Source: Escherichia coli
GTDB taxonomy: Bacteria > Pseudomonadota > Gammaproteobacteria > Enterobacterales > Enterobacteriaceae
Assembly (NCBI RefSeq): GCF_016903815.1
Contig: NZ_CP069973.1
DNA: 64,000 nt
Strand: one strand, 5' to 3'
Made by a program: the position numbers and the translations under genes. Positions within the stretch are counted from its first letter, which is position 1. The number at the start of each line of letters is the position of its first letter. The notes under the pieces are model-generated. The model had not been told where the DNA came from. It saw only the letters and a list, made by a program, of their open reading frames with translations, and made no database searches. This document shows, one piece after another, positions 15,374 to 49,998 of the stretch.

Positions 15374-17350
15374 ATGCAGCTTAATCATATCGTTAAAAGT
15401 CTGCTAATAACGGGATTATTCACCACCAGTTCTTTACCTCTCCTCGCGGCGGAAGCTCCTAAAGACGCCACCGCAGCCACGCAACAAGCAAACAATTTAC
15501 TCTACAACCAGTTGCCGTTTGCCGATAACACTGACTTTACTGATGCCCATAAAGGTTTTATTGCCCCTATCCCTCAAGACGTGATTAAGGGCGAACAAGG
15601 GAATGTTATCTGGGATCCACAACATTACGCTTTTATCAAAGAAGGCGATAAAGCCCCTGATACGGTGAATCCGAGTTTATGGCGTCAGGCGCAACTGATA
15701 AATATCAGCGGGTTATTCGAAGTAACTGAAGGTGTCTATCAGATTCGCAATCTCGATCTATCAAATATGACCATCATTGAAGGCAAAGAGGGTATTACCG
15801 TCGTTGATCCCCTTGTTTCAGCAGAAACAGCCAAAGTGGGTATGGATCTCTATTACAAAAATCGCGGCAAAAAACCGGTAGTGGCGGTTATCTATACACA
15901 CAGTCATGTCGATCACTACGGTGGTGTTCGTGGCGTAATTGATGAAGCTGACGTTAAATCAGGCAAAGTTAAAATCTATGCGCCAGCCGGATTTTTGGAG
16001 GAAGCCGTTTCCGAAAACATCATGGCTGGCAATGTTATGAGCCGACGAGCCAGTTATATGTATGGCAACTTATTGAAACCTGATGTTAAAGGCCAGGTGG
16101 GGGCTGGACTGGGAACGACTACTTCAGCAGGAACAGTCACGTTGATTGCTCCTACTAACTACATCACCAAAACCGGACAAATAGAAACTATTGACGGGTT
16201 GACTTATGATTTCCTGATGGCGCCAGGTTCTGAAGCGCCTTCTGAAATGCTGTGGTTTATTGAAGAAAAGAAACTGATCGAAACCGCTGAAGATGTCACG
16301 CACACCCTTCATAACACCTATTCGCTGCGTGGGGCTAAAATTCGCCAACCGCTGCCGTGGTCAAAATATATTAATGAAGCTCTCAATTTGTGGGGTGATA
16401 AAGCCGAGATTATTCTCGCTCAACATCACTGGCCAACCTGGGGCAACGATAACGTGGTCAAACTGCTTAAAAGCCAGCGTGATTTGTATCGTTACATCAA
16501 TGATCAAACTCTGCGCATGGCTAATCAAGGGATGACCCGTGATGAAATTGCCGCAAACTTTAAACTGCCCTCTTCACTGGCTAACACCTGGGCGAATCGC
16601 GGCTATTACGGTTCGGTAAGTCATGACGTGAAAGCAACTTACGTGCTTTATCTCGGCTGGTTTGATGGTAACCCCGCGACGCTTGATGAACTGCCGCCAG
16701 AAGAAGGCGCAAAAAAATTCGTCGAGTATATGGGCGGTGCTGATGCCATTTTACAGAAAGCCACACAGGATTATGACCAGGGTAATTTCCGCTGGGTTGC
16801 CCAAGTTGTTAGTAAGGTGGTGTTTGCCGATCCAAACAACCAGGCAGCGAGAGATCTGGAAGCTGATGCGCTTGAGCAGTTAGGCTATCAGGCTGAATCT
16901 GGGCCGTGGCGTAATTTCTATCTCACTGGTGCACAGGAATTGCGTAATGGCGTACAAAAATTACCAACACCAAATACTGCCAGCCCAGACACCGTGCGTG
17001 CGATGACGCCGGAGATGTTCTTTGATTATCTTGCCGTCCATATTAATGGTGAGAAAGCGGCAGATGCCAAAACCGTGTTGAATTTCGATTTTGGTGAAGA
17101 TGGCGGCACCTATAAAGTGGAGCTTGAAAATGGTGTTCTCAATCATACCGCTGGTGTAGAGGCTTCGGATGCTGATGCCACTATCACTCTGTCTCGTGAT
17201 GTATTGAACAAAATTGTACTGAAAGAAGAGACGCTGAAAGAAGCCACGGCCAAAGGAGATGTCAAAATTACTGGCAATGAGGAAAAACTCAACGAGCTGT
17301 TAGGTTATATGGATAATTTTGAATTTTGGTTCAATATAGTGACACCATAA
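15374..17350 (+). CDS. Secreted alkyl/aryl-sulfatase, metallo-beta-lactamase fold (SdsA1/YjcS family)
   Basis: 658 aa; signal peptide; THSHVDHYGG zinc motif; GGAGA RBS; not present at this position in K-12 as I recall it. Confidence 0.8.
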   Translation: MQLNHIVKSLLITGLFTTSSLPLLAAEAPKDATAATQQANNLLYNQLPFADNTDFTDAHKGFIAPIPQDVIKGEQGNVIWDPQHYAFIKEGDKAPDTVNPSLWRQAQLINISGLFEVTEGVYQIRNLDLSNMTIIEGKEGITVVDPLVSAETAKVGMDLYYKNRGKKPVVAVIYTHSHVDHYGGVRGVIDEADVKSGKVKIYAPAGFLEEAVSENIMAGNVMSRRASYMYGNLLKPDVKGQVGAGLGTTTSAGTVTLIAPTNYITKTGQIETIDGLTYDFLMAPGSEAPSEMLWFIEEKKLIETAEDVTHTLHNTYSLRGAKIRQPLPWSKYINEALNLWGDKAEIILAQHHWPTWGNDNVVKLLKSQRDLYRYINDQTLRMANQGMTRDEIAANFKLPSSLANTWANRGYYGSVSHDVKATYVLYLGWFDGNPATLDELPPEEGAKKFVEYMGGADAILQKATQDYDQGNFRWVAQVVSKVVFADPNNQAARDLEADALEQLGYQAESGPWRNFYLTGAQELRNGVQKLPTPNTASPDTVRAMTPEMFFDYLAVHINGEKAADAKTVLNFDFGEDGGTYKVELENGVLNHTAGVEASDADATITLSRDVLNKIVLKEETLKEATAKGDVKITGNEEKLNELLGYMDNFEFWFNIVTP

Positions 17351-17396: not shown

Positions 17397-18494
17397 ATGG
17401 CTGAACGAAGAAAAACTCATCACTCATGGAAAACCCGCCGCGATATGGTTATTCGCGGCATGACGATTAGTTTGCCATGGTTTGCTTTTATCAATGTCAG
17501 TTTTGCATTGATAATTTTGCTGCGCCGTGTTCTGTTTAATGACCTTACTCCACCCTGGTTAAATGAAAAAAGCCTTATACATTCTATTGATATATCTGCA
17601 ACGGGTATTCTGCTGATTTGCAGTGGTTTACTACTCATCCCTCGGCAAAAAACATTACCTATCCAGGTGCTATTAGTTGCCCTGAGCCTGCTATGGTCAT
17701 GGTGTAGTTATCACTTTATTGCGTACTGGACGCTGCAGTTTGCTTATCCACTATGTGTATTATTAATGCTTAGTGGCGTTGTCGCACTTTATTTCCATAC
17801 CCCATCATTGCTCGCATTTGTCATTCCCTTATGGTTCACCACTCCAATAGCGAGTCTTATGCTTAATCAACAGATCAATATTCATTTTGCTGTTGTATGG
17901 TGTATTTTTTCACTGGCGCTATATGGTGGGCGACTCATTTTGTTACGTTGGTTTGAAGAAGCATGGATACAAAACAGTTATAACAACCAGTTAATTAATC
18001 GCCTTGATGCATTAGCACATCGTGATCCTTTAACTGGGATAGCAAACCGACGTGCAATGAACAGTATCTTACACGACGCGATGGATAACGGCGGGTCATT
18101 TGCTCTTATTATGCTGGATGTCGATTTTTTTAAACGTTACAACGACACTTACGGGCATCCTGCTGGGGATCGTTGTCTAATACAAGTTGCCGACGCTCTA
18201 CAGCGTTCAACTCGCCAGTCGGAGGATGTTGTTGTCCGTTATGGTGGCGAAGAGTTTGCCATCATACTTTTTAATGCAACATTGCCGGAAGCAGAGACGG
18301 TAGCAGCCAGAGTGAAGCAAGAACTTAAACTGGCAGCTATCCCACATCAGGCATCTGCTGTTAATGCATTTGTTACGGTTAGTCAGGGGATTACCTGTTC
18401 TGCTCCCGCAAAAACGGCTGAACAAATTATTTCAGATGCCGACGCTGCGTTATACCGGGCGAAAGAAAGTGGGCGAAATCGATGGGCTTTATAA
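17397..18494 (+). CDS. Membrane-anchored diguanylate cyclase (multi-TM N-terminal domain + GGDEF)
   Basis: 365-aa ORF; hydrophobic N-terminal ~200 aa; RYGGEEF active-site motif; start codon uncertain (no clear RBS; internal Met candidates at 17445 and 17460); AT-rich. Confidence 0.8.
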   Translation: MAERRKTHHSWKTRRDMVIRGMTISLPWFAFINVSFALIILLRRVLFNDLTPPWLNEKSLIHSIDISATGILLICSGLLLIPRQKTLPIQVLLVALSLLWSWCSYHFIAYWTLQFAYPLCVLLMLSGVVALYFHTPSLLAFVIPLWFTTPIASLMLNQQINIHFAVVWCIFSLALYGGRLILLRWFEEAWIQNSYNNQLINRLDALAHRDPLTGIANRRAMNSILHDAMDNGGSFALIMLDVDFFKRYNDTYGHPAGDRCLIQVADALQRSTRQSEDVVVRYGGEEFAIILFNATLPEAETVAARVKQELKLAAIPHQASAVNAFVTVSQGITCSAPAKTAEQIISDADAALYRAKESGRNRWAL

Positions 18495-18567
18495 GCATTA
18501 GGGGACTGGACAGATTACGTCTCTCCTCGCTTAACAAGGGCTGACGGAGGGTAATAATTGTCTATAG

Positions 18568-19119
18568 CTATCTTCTTAGCGATGTCTTTCTGGTATCACA
18601 TTGGATCGGTGCAATTATTTTTCCTTTAATACCCATTATGTTAAGAAATTCAGAAACAGCTGTAATCTCATTGTTTTTTTCATTCGTCTTGATCTTCCAA
18701 GGAATCTGACTGTGCATTATTGAGAACACACTAATAACGTGAATCGCTCCCTTGCGACGACTCTTGTCATAAGAGTACCGGAGCGTTTTTCCATCAATTG
18801 CAATGACGTCTTTATCATCTGAAGAATGGCAGTCAAGCATCCAGTTAATAAAGCACTCATGAAATTTTTCAGGACTGATACAGGATACAACTCTGGCAAT
18901 GGTATCGTGAACAGGAATACCATTATCAAAATCACCATATTGCTTCAAAAAATCGAGATGTGTTTCCCCAAAATCCTCTATATCTTCCCAGCCTTCTGCA
19001 CCCGAAATAACGGCACAAATAGTCAACAGTAGAATATCCGATAATTTATGCTCCACTTTCCAGGCTTGTCTGTAATCGGGGATAATAGAAATATGTTCCA
19101 TCAATTTTTTAAGTTCCAT
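18568..19119 (-). mobile_element. H-repeat-associated (ISAs1-family) transposase, N-terminal fragment only
   Basis: 183 aa, [50 protein letters not shown]... recognised as H-rpt/YdcC-like; full-length proteins are about twice this size. Confidence 0.75.
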
Positions 19120-19254
19120 TTTGTTCTCCTTAATTATGTAAAGAGTATTTGATCATGTATAAGCAATAAAAAACAGCTTTAGGTAATGAGGAATATCTCA
19201 ATTTTTAAACATAAAATGCGAATTATTTAGTACAAAAAAGCAGCGTTACGTGAT

Positions 19255-19390
19255 CTTTCCCTGCCCTATCGGGTCTGTGTGATATATCGTCCCTGTCCCG
19301 GATTGTAGTACCGGTGCCAGTTGTAGTGCAGTTCGGATTCGTCGTCATACTGCTAGCCCGGATGGCGGAGCAGTTGCTCTAGTCACTCAG
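19255..19390 (-). pseudogene. Vestigial rhs core 3'-end fragment (nonsense + frameshift)
   Basis: Minus-strand translation [34 protein letters not shown] aligns with the main Rhs ...[35 protein letters not shown]; clear nucleotide similarity to 20331..20460. Confidence 0.6.
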
Positions 19391-19424
19391 AATATTGTAA
19401 TAGTAATATAGTGCAGTGCCGGTT

Positions 19425-19823
19425 TCAATATCCTAACGCTGGTCTTTTGCCTGTATTAACTGATTTAGCTGGTTTGCTACATATTAATGCCTTCAGATTT
19501 TCCCTTTCCTTGTCTGTGATACTGTCGCAAACCCTACTAGCCCATTCTACTTCACTCTTCTCCAGGCATTCAATTTTCTTATTGCTCATTGTTCTAATGT
19601 TTGGTGTTGCATCTCCATTTAATAACATCCATGTTTCATTTTTCTTCATAAAACATCTTCCATTATGTTCAAAGATATTAGGTGTGAATATATTATCAGA
19701 ATCCCATGTTACGACTTGCTCGAGGGCTATATTATCTTGATAGTCCATGCCAGAATTATAATAATCACAAGATATAATTATCATGGAAATAATTATCACT
19801 AATATCTTCCCAAGCATTTCCAT
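19425..19823 (-). CDS. Putative Rhs-toxin immunity lipoprotein
   Basis: 132 aa, immediately downstream of and abutting the rhs stop; lipobox IIS-C with Asp at +2; AT-rich; assignment is by position. Confidence 0.55.
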   Translation of the reverse strand: MEMLGKILVIIISMIIISCDYYNSGMDYQDNIALEQVVTWDSDNIFTPNIFEHNGRCFMKKNETWMLLNGDATPNIRTMSNKKIECLEKSEVEWASRVCDSITDKERENLKALICSKPAKSVNTGKRPALGY

Positions 19824-22800
19824 TTACTTTACCTCTTGAAATTTAAATGGGAATCCAGTGAAAGGACCTTTAGGCATAATATATCTTTGATATCCATAAA
19901 ACTCACCGAGCACTTGTAGGCTTATAGGCGCATTTGTATTCATAGAGGGGTTGTTAAACCCGCACGCCTCAAAAATCATGTTCGTTCGGCTAAAACAATT
20001 ATTTGCAACAGGAAGAGGCCCGAGGTTAATAGTTTTTAGTTTTTTATTAAGGTCTATTGCCTTATTCATCATACATTGTTCTTCTTCATCTGTTGTATCT
20101 ATTATCCAAATCCAGGTATCTCTGCGGGGTTGCATCTTTTTAAAATAATCAGAGACAGAGGCGCCCATCTCATCCCCAGTTCCCGAACTCATTAATCCAT
20201 ATCGATTTGCCGCCGCAGCATGCCCAAAAGGATTATCAGGAACGGGGCCATTACCTATTATCATAGTACTAAGGCCTAATGGATCAACGTGTTGCACTGG
20301 ATTCAGCGGATATTGGTACAGATTCCATCCCCCATCCCCCCCTATCGGGTCCTGGATGATATACCGCCCCTGCAACGGATCGTAGTACCGGTGACGGTTA
20401 TAATACAGCCCCGACTCCTCATCGTGTTGCTGCCCTGGCAGACGGTACGGCTGGTGCAGGTGATGCGGGTTTTCCTCATTCAGCAGGTTTCCCCACTCAT
20501 CATACTCCCCGCTCCACGCCGTATTGCCGTCTTCGCTGATGAGCGCCAGCGGCAGGCCCCGGTGGTCGCAGTGGTAAAGATGAACTTTTCGCGCCGGTGT
20601 GTATTCCGGCTCCACCTGTCTGGCCAGTTGCTCTACCGTCAGCCCGCACTGCGCAAGCCACGCCCGGCTTTCACTGCTCACGCGGTCTGCCCGGATTTCT
20701 TCCTCCAGTCTGTCCAGCAGCCGTACCAGTTCAGCCGGGAACACCACGCCGTGCCCGTCCTCGCTCCCTTCCTGCTGCAGCTTCTCCGCCAGGCTGTGGC
20801 GCTGCGTTTTCTCCCGCTCGCCGTTGTCTGTTTCGATGCGGATGAGTGGTGTGAAGCTTCCCGGCTCGTATACCGTCTGGATCCGGCTCTGTTGTGTCTG
20901 TATCGTCGTCAGCCTGTCACCGTCCCAGCCGTACCACGTTACCTCCGGTTTACGCGACAGCGACATCCACCCCGTCAGGTCACGTACCCGCCGCCACACC
21001 CGTTTACCCGTCCGGCGGCCCAGCGGGTCGTAGAGGTAGCGGCTCTCCACCTGCGGCTCGCCATGCTGTATCCGCGTGTAGAACTCTAGGCGGTGCTGGC
21101 TGTCGTAGTGGTAGTGGTGGGTCCGCTCGTCGTCCGTCCGTATCACACCCGCCGGGATGCGGTCCGTCTTCTCCGTCAGCCTGCCGTATTCATCGTGGCG
21201 GTAGACATAGTGCGCATCCTCCGCGATGCGGTTATCCAGCCACACTGTGAGTGTACTGTCCGGGTGCAGCTCCGGGTCCGGCAGCCGGTTGCCCGCCGGG
21301 TCCGTGGCATACGGGATGCGGATGTCCAGGTCCGGTGCGAGGGTGCGCACACTCGCCAGCCTGCCCGTGGCGCTGTAGCCGTATTCCCGCGTCTGTCGCG
21401 GGCCGCTGATGCGCACCAGGTCGCCGTTGTCATTCCACCCGTAGTCACGGTCATACACCAGGCTGTTCAGGTGCTGGCTCTGTAACTGGCCTGCGGGGGT
21501 GTATGTGCTGGTCAGTTCGTATGCGGCATTACTGCCTGCCATGCTGCCGAAGCTGCGCACCGTCTCCCGGTGCAGCCTGTCCCGCGTATACTCGACCCGC
21601 GGCGTCCCGCCCAGCTTCATGCCCGCCAGATAGCCGCTACCATAGGTCAGCCACTCCACCGGCGGCAGGCTGTCCGGCGTGACGCGGTTTGCCAGCCCCT
21701 GCTCGTTGTATGCGTGTTTCGTCTCATGCTGCCACAGCAGTTCCCCCGTCTCCGGGTTCTCCACCGTCTGGCGTTCGCCGGTCAGGCGGCCTTTATCGTC
21801 ATAGCCATAGTGGACGGCAACACGGTGGCCTTCACTGGTATGGCTGAGGGTGGTTAACCACCCGTGCTCATCATACTGCCACTGCTCTGCCGGGTCGCCG
21901 TTCACCGTCCGGTGCGTGATGCGGTCTGCTTCATCGTAGTACCACTGCGTGACCTGCCCCTCATCCTCGCTGCGGATGAGCTGCCCTGTGGCGCTGTACC
22001 GGTAACGCTGTGTCCTGCCATCAAAGCCGCGCTGCTCCGTCAGGCGGTCCAGCACATCGTAGGTAAATTCACTCCGGCTGCCGTTCTCGTTGGTCAGCGT
22101 GGTGACACGTCCTGCCGCGTCATACTCCATACTGCGCGTCAGCCCGCCCTGCGTGGTGCTGACCGCTTTTCCCCACGCATCGTACTGTGTCTCGCTCCGG
22201 TTGCCGTCCGGGGTGATAACGGCAGTCAGGTCGCCTGCGGCGTTGTACTCATACTGCGTTTCACGGCCCTGTGCGTCTTTCACCGAGGTTAACCGGCCAC
22301 GGTTGTCATAGCGGCGGTAACGGCTGATACCTTCCTCGCGGTGGACCGCCGTCATCTGACCAAAGCGGTCGTATTCATAGCGGGTCTGGTAGCCCGAGCA
22401 GTCGGTGAACGCCAGCAACTGCCCGTAGCGGCTCCAGGTCATCTGCCGGGTGCTGCCCGTCGCATCCGTTGTCGTCGCCGGTAACTCACTGTACGCGTCA
22501 TCGTAGCGGTAGCGTACTGTCTCCCCGCTGCGCGATGTCTCCGTTACCAGCCTGCCCGGTTCATCATATGCCCGGCGGCTCTCCAGCCCGTCCGGGGACA
22601 CCACTGCCGTCACCTGGTTCCCGTCGTTATAGTAAAATTTCGTCTCCCGCCCGTCCGGTGTGGTGATGTCCGTGATATCGCCTGACACCACATTCAGACC
22701 GTACTCTGTCCGCCGTCCCGCCGCGTCCGTCTGCGCCGTAAGCCTTCCTGCCGCGTCATACCCACTGTGCGTGGCGCTGCCGTCCGCCAGTTCTTTTTTC

Positions 22801-24029
22801 ACCACCCGCCTCAGCCCGGCCCCGCCTTCTGTATGCAGCACCTCACGCCGGTTCAGGCTGTCCGTGACGGTGATGCGGTCCTGCTCATACTGGTAGCGGT
22901 AACTCAGGCCTGCCGGGTTCAGCTGCTCCACCACCCGCCCCGCATCGTCGTAGCGGTAGCGCATCTCCGGCCTTCCCGCGTAACGGTGCGCCACCATCCG
23001 GCCCGGGTGCTGCGCGTCATACGTGAAAGCGCGCACCTGCGTATTGCTGCGGTCATATACCGCCAGCAGTTCACCGGCTTCCGTATACGTGTACCGCACC
23101 AGTGGCGCACCGGGCAGGCTCTCCGGGTATGCCGGGTCGTGCATCAGCCACACCGCCGAAAGACGGATGCCCCTGTCGGGGCCGTATTCGGTACCGGGCA
23201 GTGTGTCGGGGAACGCTGAGGCTGAAAGAGGGCGGGGGGTGTCAGGGGAAAATAAGGAAGCGGTGTGCTGTTTACGGGCCTCTTCCGCCCGCTGCGCCTG
23301 CGTGGTCAGCACCAGACGGAACTCCCGCCCGGCACCGTCCGTCACGCCGGTGATTTCCCCGGCCAGGTCACCGGCGGCCTCACGCCGGTACGTCAGCCCG
23401 GTAAGCACCCGGTACGGCGGCAGCGGCGCTGGCAGTACGTCCTCAGTGCCCGGCACCCGCTCTGACCACCCCAGTATCCACCACGGTCCCTGTGCGCTGT
23501 TGGTCGCCAGGTAAAGATGCGGGCTTAACCGGATATCCGGCGGCAGCGACGCCCACAGCCGTGCCAGCGTGTGGCCGTCCGGCTGCGCTGCCTTACCACC
23601 GCGAACCAGCCACATTGACTCGCTGCGGCTGTACACCGCCCCCCCCGGCAGCAGCGGCTCAAAGTGAATGCTCCGTCCGCCGTTGTCGTTGAGTACCAGT
23701 GCATCATCGCGTATCTGTAAGCGGATATCAGAAGGCGCTTTCCAGCCGGGGCCAAAAATTCCCACCGGCGCAGGCGTCTTCGTCCGGTAGCTGCTGTAGG
23801 TGCGGGAGAGAATGAACGGCAGCGGGCCGGGCAGCGCAAGGTCCGTCTCGCCGGGCAGCACCTTCGCCCCCAGCAGCGGATTTACCGGGTTGCCCGAAGT
23901 CATCCTGCCCGGACACACCGAGCACGCCACGCCGGTGGGCGCGCCAATTCTTACACCTGCCGAACCCTGGACAATGGGACCGCCATACTGAGTCATATCT
24001 CCCTGACGCGCCGCTGGTTTTCCGCTCAT
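19824..24029 (-). CDS. rhsE: Rhs-family polymorphic toxin with N-terminal PAAR-like domain, YD-repeat core and variable C-terminal toxin domain
   Basis: 1401 aa; N-terminus [11 protein letters not shown]; many YD repeats; core ends at ...[27 protein letters not shown], followed by a 148-aa AT-rich tail (19827..20270); gene symbol by synteny only. Confidence 0.9.
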
Positions 24030-48085: not shown

Positions 48086-49258
48086 ATGCGTCTGTTTTCT
48101 ATTCCTCCACCCACGCTACTGGCGGGGTTTCTGGCGGTATTAATTGGCTACGCCAGTTCAGCGGCAATAATCTGGCAAGCAGCGATTGTCGCCGGAGCCA
48201 CCACTGCACAAATCTCTGGCTGGATGACGGCGCTGGGGCTGGCAATGGGCGTCAGTACGCTGACTCTGACATTATGGTATCGCGTACCTGTTCTCACCGC
48301 ATGGTCAACGCCTGGCGCGGCTTTGTTGGTCACCGGATTACAGGGACTAACACTTAACGAAGCCATCGGCGTTTTTATTGTCACCAACGCGTTAATAGTC
48401 CTCTGCGGCATAACGGGACTCTTTGCTCGTCTGATGCGCATTATTCCGCACTCGCTTGCGGCGGCAATGCTTGCCGGGATTTTATTACGCTTTGGTTTAC
48501 AGGCGTTTGCCAGTCTGGATGATCAATTTACGTTGTGTGGCAGTATGTTGCTGGTATGGCTGGCAACCAAGGCCGTTGCGCCGCGCTATGCGGTAATTGC
48601 CGCGATGATTATTGGGATCGTCATCGTTATCGCGCAAGGTGACGTTGTCACAAATGATGTTGTCTTTAAACCCGTTCTCCCCACTTATATTACCCCTGAT
48701 TTTGCGTTTGCTCACAGCCTGAGCGTTGCACTCCCCCTTTTTCTGGTGACGATGGCATCGCAAAACGCACCGGGTATCGCAGCAATGAAAGCCGCCGGAT
48801 ATTCAGCTCCTGTTTCGCCATTAATTGTATTTACTGGATTGCTGGCACTGGTTTTTTCCCCTTTCGGCGTTTATTCCGTCGGTATTGCGGCAATCACCGC
48901 GGCTATTTGTCAAAGCCCGGAAGCGCATCCGGATAAAGATCAACGTTGGCTGGCAGCTGCCGTTGCAGGCATTTTTTATTTGCTCGCAGGTCTTTTTGGT
49001 AGTGCTATTACCGGGATGATGGCTGCCCTGCCCGTAAGTTGGATCCAGATGCTGGCAGGTCTGGCGCTGTTGAGTACCATTGGCGGCAGTTTGTATCAGG
49101 CGCTGCATAATGAGCGTGAGCGCGACGCGGCGGTGGTGGCATTTCTGGTAACGGCAAGTGGATTGACGCTGGTCGGGATTGGTTCTGCGTTTTGGGGATT
49201 AATTGCCGGAGGCGTTTGTTACGTGGTGTTGAATTTAATCGCTGACAGAAACCGATAA
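48086..49258 (+). CDS. ydcO: BenE-family membrane transporter
   Basis: Start taken at MRLFSIPPPTLLAGFLAVLIGYASSAAI, internal Met of the track ORF. Confidence 0.85.
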   Translation: MRLFSIPPPTLLAGFLAVLIGYASSAAIIWQAAIVAGATTAQISGWMTALGLAMGVSTLTLTLWYRVPVLTAWSTPGAALLVTGLQGLTLNEAIGVFIVTNALIVLCGITGLFARLMRIIPHSLAAAMLAGILLRFGLQAFASLDDQFTLCGSMLLVWLATKAVAPRYAVIAAMIIGIVIVIAQGDVVTNDVVFKPVLPTYITPDFAFAHSLSVALPLFLVTMASQNAPGIAAMKAAGYSAPVSPLIVFTGLLALVFSPFGVYSVGIAAITAAICQSPEAHPDKDQRWLAAAVAGIFYLLAGLFGSAITGMMAALPVSWIQMLAGLALLSTIGGSLYQALHNERERDAAVVAFLVTASGLTLVGIGSAFWGLIAGGVCYVVLNLIADRNR

Positions 49259-49264
49259 TAAATA

Positions 49265-49291
49265 TCCTCCGGCATAGCCGGAGGTTTTTCA
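49265..49291 (+). terminator. Rho-independent terminator of ydcO
   Basis: cctccggc-ata-gccggagg followed by ttttt. Confidence 0.6.
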
Positions 49292-49299
49292 AATGCGCC

Positions 49300-49960
49300 T
49301 ATAAGGCTCTCTTACCAGCCGCGCCCTAACAGGCGCACACGATCTGACATTTGCATCCAACTTCGTTACTTACGGCCCGTAAACGGGCTGCCCGGATAGG
49401 GAATCGATAACTGCTCTCCCATTTTATCCTCTTCAAGCTGGTGCTTTATGTAATCCTGTATCTTCGCCGTGTTCTTACCCACCGTATCGACGTAGTACCC
49501 TCTGCACCAGAACTCCCTGTTCCTGTATTTGAATTTCAAATCACCAAACTGCTCGTAAAGCATCAGACTGCTTTTCCCTTTCAGATATCCCATAAAGCCG
49601 GATACGCTCATTTTGGGCGGGATCTCCACAAGCATATGGATATGATCTGCACAGCATTCAGCTTCCAGAATCCGTACACTTTTCCACTCACACAGCTTTC
49701 TCAAAATACTGCCTATTGCTCTACGCTTCTCTCTGTAGAACACCTGTCTTCGGTATTTTGGCGCAAAAACTATGTGATATTTACAGTTCCATCGGGTGTG
49801 CGCTAAGCTCTTTTCGTTCCCCATTGGGACCCCCTTTTGATTTCTTGTTTGACACTTGCAGTTGCCAGACCGCAAGGTGTTTTAACAAATCAAAAGGGGT
49901 TTTAATAACTGGCTTAAAGCTGAAAGCTTTCCGGAACCCCCAGCCTAGCTGGGGGTTTTC
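49300..49960 (-). mobile_element. IS200-like insertion sequence (boundaries approximate)
   Basis: Contains the tnpA CDS; palindromes cccccagc-cta-gctggggg (~49935..49955) and ccccttttgatt...aatcaaaagggg (~49843..49905) resemble IS200 left-end structures. Confidence 0.55.
49366..49824 (-). CDS. tnpA: IS200/IS605-family Y1 (HuH) transposase TnpA
   Basis: 152 aa from MGNEKSLAHTRWNCKYHIVFAPKYRR...; HuH motif HIHMLVEIPP; catalytic Tyr region YIKHQL. Confidence 0.85.
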   Translation of the reverse strand: MGNEKSLAHTRWNCKYHIVFAPKYRRQVFYREKRRAIGSILRKLCEWKSVRILEAECCADHIHMLVEIPPKMSVSGFMGYLKGKSSLMLYEQFGDLKFKYRNREFWCRGYYVDTVGKNTAKIQDYIKHQLEEDKMGEQLSIPYPGSPFTGRK

Positions 49961-49967
49961 TGTGCAC

Positions 49968-49998
49968 AAAAAAGCGCCATCTAACGATGGCGCGTCTG
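49968..49998 (-). terminator. Rho-independent terminator of ydcL
   Basis: gcgccatc-gtta-gatggcgc followed by tttttt on the minus strand, just after the ydcL stop. Confidence 0.6.

Follow-up and report, generated by a model that had tools for sequence, protein, structure and literature searches.

A probable internally deleted, hybrid H-repeat relic beside a variable vgrG/rhs island in Escherichia coli

Introduction

H-repeats are known to accompany Rhs elements as accessory components, examples being those of RhsB, RhsC and RhsE in Escherichia coli K-12, and their transposition has reportedly never been observed. Adjacent (nested) deletions mediated by insertion sequences (IS) have classically been described for IS1, IS10 and IS903, and are classically recognised by nested endpoints that share one IS terminus. 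The general architecture of Rhs elements has been described (PMC3032704), and a study of the K-12 mobilome found no clear circular intermediates for ISAs1 (bioRxiv 10.1101/2024.07.17.603846).

The closest described copy to the one studied here is H-rptE/ydcC (b1460) of K-12, annotated as ISEc1/ISEc5-like within the ISAs1 family. This copy is complete, with a length of 1,291 bp, an ORF of 378 aa and a canonical right inverted repeat. The window analysed here, a stretch of E. coli DNA of 64,000 nucleotides, carries an H-repeat relic at the same chromosomal site, between the rhsE island and pptA. Over its left inverted repeat, leader and initial ~480 bp the relic agrees with H-rptE/ydcC (about 96-98% identity). 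It differs from that copy by the loss of nt 697-1227, by a frameshift and by the divergence of its right portion. In K-12, H-rptE/ydcC abuts pptA directly because a block comprising a sulfatase and a GGDEF gene is missing there. The same island of K-12 also holds yncI (b1459), the RhsE-region H-repeat pseudogene, which is decayed like the relic, with stops and frameshifts and no intact right end. Its lesions and position differ from those of the relic, however, and the two belong to different lineages. Their identity was 26-72% per 50-nt alignment window and 50-72% over the divergent segment of the relic, below that of the canonical copies there.

Results

Genomic context of the relic

Positions 18300-19420 of the window were 100% identical to many complete E. 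coli genomes, such as strain 7/2 (NZ_CP023820), which differed from the window at one position over 9851-50000. The gene order was nhoA (-), yddH (+), pptA (-), an alkyl/aryl-sulfatase gene (+), a MASE5-GGDEF diguanylate cyclase gene (+) and the H-repeat ORF (-), followed by an Rhs core fragment (-), a 132-aa ORF (-), Rhs (-), VgrG, yncH, yncG and ansP. The sulfatase gene (15374..17350, plus strand) was assigned by Pfam, as was the diguanylate cyclase gene (17445..18494, plus strand; MASE5 1.1e-43, GGDEF 1.4e-48). Comparison with K-12 identified these two genes as one block that is missing in that strain. We also considered DgcX as an identity for the GGDEF gene and ruled it out, since DgcX is located at the lambda attB locus (PMC4287979). 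The GGDEF gene and the H-repeat relic are convergent, and a terminator scan between this gene and the H-repeat ORF found none. Read from the sequence, a spacer of 11 nt (18495..18505) separates the GGDEF stop codon (18492-18494) from the right terminus of the relic.

On the other side, an orphan Rhs core-end fragment (19264..19382, minus strand; translation ..HRYYNPGQGRYITQ/DPIG) directly abuts the left inverted repeat of the relic, and PGAP labels it as a partial 'RHS repeat-associated core domain'. Beyond it lie the 132-aa ORF (19425..19823, minus strand), situated downstream of Rhs, and the Rhs gene itself (19824..24029, minus strand). The succession on the minus strand of Rhs, putative immunity ORF (132 aa), core fragment and left inverted repeat is the arrangement of an Rhs-accessory H-repeat. 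Pfam gave zero matches for the C-terminal ~187 aa of Rhs (after the DPLGL motif) or for the 132-aa ORF, and we regard the Rhs C-terminal tip and this ORF as a putative, uncharacterised toxin/immunity pair.

Other features of the window were recorded alongside. An IS200C copy lies beside ydcO (49257-49969). Strain 7/2 has an additional IS200C that splits narH (L088, 9141/9852); in the window narH is uninterrupted and this copy is not present. In the RefSeq annotation of the identical sequence of strain 7/2, an ompC-family porin gene is interrupted by an internal stop (window ~1478-2578; L088 767-1867) and a leucine-rich-repeat protein gene is in two fragments (window ~2742-3709; L088 2031-2998).

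The remaining transposase ORF

The H-repeat ORF comprises 183 codons (18568..19119, minus strand) and begins with an ATG behind an AAGGAG ribosome-binding site. It matched the NCBIfam model NF033564 'ISAs1 family transposase' at 169.1 bits (cutoff 70, E=1.3e-49), although only profile positions 1-142/314 were covered. The original prediction of ~183 codons of an ISAs1-type H-repeat transposase, ending 73 bp from the stop of the GGDEF gene, was borne out in both parts, as exactly 73 bp lie between the GGDEF stop (18492-18494) and the ORF stop (from 18568). It had also proposed a comparison with full-length members of the family. Both K-12 YdcC (378 aa) and the YdcC of strain OkiPb01695 (373 aa) covered NF033564 1-314 fully; intact family members are therefore ~375 aa long, not ~180 aa.

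Pfam located a complete DDE_Tnp_1_assoc domain at aa 8-94 (E=1.4e-34). Only the first third of DDE_Tnp_1 (PF01609) followed, with aa 102-163 corresponding to profile 3-73/200 and a score of 18.4 bits, under the cutoff of 23 bits, so that the ORF does not encode a complete catalytic domain. In full-length YdcC, DDE_Tnp_1 spans aa 102-343 (profile 3-200). Codons 1 to ~170 are in the transposase frame and the last ~13 are out of frame, owing to a 1-bp deletion near 18610; the corrected frame holds an in-frame TGA near 18595. In strain 7/2, the same sequence bears the RefSeq/PGAP annotation 'ISAs1 family transposase; frameshifted; incomplete; missing C-terminus'. The relic junction was present in 344/5,426 complete E. 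coli genomes, which excludes an assembly artefact. Given the missing catalytic domain, the relic is presumably incapable of transposing alone, and the product of the ORF, if made, would consist of the N-terminal DDE_Tnp_1_assoc domain and about one third of the DDE catalytic domain.

Ends of the relic and the internal deletion

The canonical E. coli H-repeat measured 1,291 bp, from CAGGGAAAGATCA at the left to TAATCTT(G/T)CCCTG at the right. In comparison, the whole relic (18506..19263, minus strand) has 758 bp and falls short of the ~1.3 kb of such an element, with 531 bp missing internally. Its left inverted repeat CAGGGAAAGATCA (19251..19263, minus strand) was 13/13 identical to canonical copies, and homology between strains starts exactly at this repeat. 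The H-repeat 5' leader follows (19120..19250, minus strand), with the AAGGAG ribosome-binding site and one promoter-like site (19161-19133); the promoter scan returned 6 promoter-like sites versus 3.5 +/- 1.9 in shuffles and was thus not over expectation. Clear homology to canonical copies extends over the leader and ORF nt 1-552, ending at ~18569, and of the 1,137-nt transposase gene the relic accordingly retains nt 1-552.

This end of clear homology at the ORF stop is what would be expected if the H-repeat had been cut at about codon 183 by a rearrangement joining Rhs to the sulfatase/GGDEF block, the DNA past the ORF being unrelated sequence from the side of the block. The flanks are also in keeping with a cut, with the Rhs core fragment at the left and the GGDEF 3' end at the right and no target-site duplication between them (left flank ..CCCGATAGGG, right flank TCCCCTAATGC.., without a direct repeat); the canonical H-repeat copies inspected likewise had none. 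Moreover, when the 24 nt that precede the shared flank were aligned globally, with gaps, to the canonical terminus, the result was not significant (p=0.34). This alignment was in the wrong register, as the true right terminus lies 43 nt beyond the end used in it.

In the ungapped alignment, 18506..18568 (minus strand) corresponds to canonical element nt 1228-1291, as a retained but strongly diverged right end. These positions ran collinear with the terminal 64 nt of the canonical copy, with 37/63 matches, a value reached in 0/20,000 shuffles, although the homology over the 63 nt is weak (59%) and its register was picked after the similarity had been seen. The first 21 nt of the alignment alone gave 12/21 (p=0.002). 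The register is supported by the orthologous flank in OkiPb01695, for which an unbiased local alignment to the canonical end gave 28/39 matches (0/2,000 shuffles). The search for inverted repeats that had been suggested gave a canonical repeat on the left and a probable, degenerate one on the right, the latter lying inside the 63-nt collinear match. This degenerate right inverted repeat (18506-18519) reads CTGGACAGATTACG on the plus strand versus the canonical CAGGGCAAGATTACG, and the right end of the relic terminates in CGTAATCTGTCCAG versus the canonical CGTAATCTTGCCCTG. By eye, it agrees with the CAGGG-type terminus at ~12/15 positions with one gap, a similarity supported only within the 63-nt collinear match. 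Megablast alignments of relic genomes to the OkiPb01695 junction extended 5-8 nt into the right inverted repeat.

Since the 63 nt past the ORF are collinear with the canonical right end, the lesion is an internal deletion combined with the 1-bp frameshift. The segment lost is canonical element nt 697-1227, equal to ORF nt 553-1083 (531 bp), and the deletion junction lies at ~18568/18569. A cut at codon 183 is unlikely in the light of this collinearity and of the right-inverted-repeat-like end. Against it also stand the distal 43 nt, which in OkiPb01695 adjoin a complete canonical right inverted repeat and belong to the flank that matches the canonical end at 28/39, and the breakpoints between strains, which fall at the left end of the relic and not at the ORF end. 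The description of the transposase as truncated to its N-terminal half holds for the gene, which keeps this half only. It does not hold for the element, which was not cut at the ORF end but carries an internal 531-bp deletion and a frameshift and has kept its right end. By sequence comparison, the element meets the GGDEF flank with its own old right end.

Hybrid make-up of the relic

In a sliding comparison with four full-length copies, identity was 97-98% at ~19238-18782, then 86-90%, and then 76-78% at 18731-18583, with a sharp drop near 18780. A canonical-like left segment (18782..19263, minus strand), 97-98% identical to common full-length H-repeats, is thus distinguished from a divergent segment (18569..18781, minus strand) with ~78-80% identity to every H-repeat copy found. 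For the left 482 bp, the best non-self matches were full-length ydcC-type copies (98.3-98.5%). The identity of the right ~275 bp to any copy found was ~78% in the ORF part and ~59% at the end. Relative to the consensus of the four full-length copies, 18569-18781 had 41 substitutions, distributed 15/8/18 over the codon positions, with 19 GC-to-AT transitions against 10 of the reverse.

Closer relatives of the divergent part were sought in three collections. The best non-self match to the right 157 bp of the ORF among the 5,426 E. coli genomes (distant mode) was 80.5%, and the best match to the divergent right part in PLSDB plasmids was 79.8%. A search of the protein collection with the frame-corrected 76-aa segment returned 27 candidates, all short, with the best non-self match 74% identical. 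No full-length element of the divergent type was found in the E. coli genomes, PLSDB or the protein collection, the last yielding short candidates only. We also considered whether positions 19239-19250, the 12 nt adjoining the left inverted repeat on its inner side, were 'old type', which would make the relic an old-canonical-old mosaic. This was rejected, as the variant is common (1,227 genomes at >=99%, other H-repeat loci included).

On these identities, the relic is a hybrid of a common-type left ~480 bp and a divergent right ~275 bp. The right part would stem from a divergent H-repeat lineage of greater age, or would at least be old, with the left part exchanged recently. Alternatively, a canonical copy could have diverged at the right, with no hybrid formed, through accelerated local decay or through error-prone repair that accompanied the deletion. 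The GC-to-AT bias, the almost even spread over codon positions and the want of any full-length divergent-type copy in the E. coli genomes, PLSDB and the protein collection (short candidates) are in line with this. However, ~22% divergence within 213 bp, beside a 98% segment and a GGDEF gene conserved at 98-100% among strains, far exceeds neutral decay in situ. In OkiPb01695, moreover, the distal 43 nt of the retained right end show similar divergence next to a canonical copy. We therefore hold local decay without a hybrid to be very unlikely.

A variable island at the left end

Variation among carriers was concentrated in the left part. Whilst the right part was >=99% identical in 343/344 relic genomes, the left 482 bp reached >=99% in only 163/344. 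Three genomes with the same relic had three unrelated sequences directly outside the left inverted repeat. In the window, the island cargo consists of VgrG, Rhs, the 132-aa ORF and the core fragment. Strain CT30 (L091) carries a different Vgr, a DcrB-related protein, a DUF6531 toxin and a SymE-family toxin, and strain MLI106K1 (L092) a full-length H-repeat pseudogene, a different Rhs and a pentapeptide-repeat protein. The type VI secretion system (T6SS) cargo from ansP to the relic is hence wholly different in the three, with the relic and the GGDEF side constant.

The sequence differences among these genomes were unevenly placed. MLI106K1 differed from the window at 9 positions over 19261-19051 and at none over 19050-18700, and its 3.5-kb match to the sulfatase/GGDEF block was 100.0% identical (rounded). 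This clustering was significant (Fisher p=3e-7) for 8/482 left-part sites against an assumed 1/3,533 block sites. For CT30, the left part showed 5 differences from the window and the right part 1. Such a pattern would be expected from homologous exchange of the island with one crossover inside the H-repeat. The original prediction had seen a rearrangement junction between the Rhs element and the sulfatase/GGDEF block. Strains do differ at this boundary, but it is the left end of the relic, and not the end of the ORF, at which synteny between them breaks. The relic thus appears to be a fixed border, on the right, of an island whose T6SS effectors vary.

H-repeat junctions in other lineages

In other strains, collinear DNA meets the canonical right inverted repeat at four nested points, successively closer to pptA. 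All four junctions are anchored at the right inverted repeat of the H-repeats of those strains and are given here as window-equivalent positions. The outermost lies at the old right end with a GGDEF 3' remnant (18547; OkiPb01695 type, L005; 3 genomes). The next are found at a sulfatase 3' remnant (~17290; O169:H41 type, L007; 30 genomes) and at about sulfatase codon 23 (15443; isolate 624 type, L004; 84 genomes), and the innermost lies just upstream of pptA (15157; K-12 type, L002; 2,289 genomes). These four nested junctions suggest IS-mediated adjacent deletions, which would produce this pattern. The likeness to the nested deletions of IS1, IS10 and IS903 holds for the full-length copies in other strains, but not for the relic.

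The copies in OkiPb01695 and 2018-05-2CC lie at the same locus as the relic and have in common with it the distal 43 nt of the old right end, followed by the GGDEF 3' end; unlike in the window, the sulfatase gene and most of the GGDEF gene are gone from both strains. In OkiPb01695, the distal 43 nt and the GGDEF flank adjoin a full-length H-repeat with a canonical right inverted repeat, so that, compared with the relic, a full-length ORF and this repeat are followed by only 43 nt of the old end. In 2018-05-2CC, they adjoin an H-repeat that has an intact right end and lacks the N-terminal part. This orthologous H-repeat carries a different internal deletion, with the N-terminal part of its ORF gone (L006 6500-7000), which indicates that H-repeat decay is recurrent at this locus. 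OkiPb01695 also has a group II intron (with a frameshifted ltrA) just inside the left end of its H-repeat (L005 ~4600-6480), and the Rhs core fragment outside its left inverted repeat falls 26 bp short of that in the window.

The sulfatase/GGDEF block was at least 80% present in 438 genomes, 344 of which had the dead relic. Most of the remaining ~94 block-bearing genomes resemble strain XDL, in which the vgrG/rhs island is absent. In XDL (L003 12386/12387), the whole yncH/vgrG/rhs/H-repeat island is absent and the GGDEF stop directly abuts the yncG stop. This junction is equivalent to window positions 18486 and 27301, with the last two GGDEF codons differing (EK* vs AL*). Homology of XDL to the window stops at 18486, inside the last GGDEF codons, and does not match the terminus of the relic. 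At most 1/5,426 genomes could pair a full-length copy at the junction with an intact block. The association of a dead copy with an intact block, counted without phylogenetic correction, is suggestive; it may be phylogenetic inertia from few events.

Truncated-transposase inhibitors exist in other insertion sequences. That the 183-aa product is likewise a maintained DNA-binding N-terminal domain, repressing or interfering with other H-repeat transposases, and not the output of a pseudogene, is highly improbable here. In favour of such a role, the ORF is open behind a strong ribosome-binding site, keeps the entire DDE_Tnp_1_assoc domain, is retained in 344 genomes beside differing cargo and is accompanied by the near absence of full-length copies beside an intact block (<=1/5,426 genomes). 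Against it, its end was made by a frameshift and an out-of-frame tail, substitutions in its divergent part fall on all codon positions, its carriers are too alike for a selection test (343/344 at >=99% identity) and PGAP calls it a pseudogene.

Discussion

The relic is probably the non-functional remnant of a 1,291-bp H-repeat that was internally deleted, kept both ends and combines an old right part with an exchanged left part. The locus is an already annotated IS pseudogene of a known kind, to which our analysis adds the internal deletion with both ends, the hybrid structure and the position at an island border. In the scheme that we favour, the left part of an old H-repeat copy would have been overwritten repeatedly as the neighbouring T6SS effector island was swapped. 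The island would be exchanged by homologous recombination, with one crossover in the H-repeat and the other toward ansP. The role of the relic would be passive, that of a portable stretch of homology and a fixed right-hand border of the island. In other lineages, full-length H-repeats would generate adjacent deletions that remove the sulfatase/GGDEF block, the block staying intact beside a dead copy. This order of events is inferred from the comparison of E. coli strains.

A wider interpretation is possible, which we put forward tentatively and with more doubt than confidence. H-repeats at this locus may be active now, or may have been recently, in natural E. coli. At least four nested deletions, produced by a full-length copy and anchored on its right inverted repeat, would have stripped the block from >2,400/5,426 genomes, leaving it essentially where the H-repeat is dead (344) or the canonical junction is absent (~94), and the relic would have served as a long-lived anchor for swaps of T6SS cargo.

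As a pseudogenised insertion sequence that RefSeq has already flagged, the relic in itself matters little. It illustrates that the label 'truncated transposase' can conceal an internally deleted element with both ends, and it provides a stable landmark at the edge of a hypervariable vgrG/rhs effector island. The comparative picture is indirect, population-level evidence of H-repeats shaping this region of the E. coli chromosome, including the loss of an accessory c-di-GMP cyclase and a sulfatase in most lineages.
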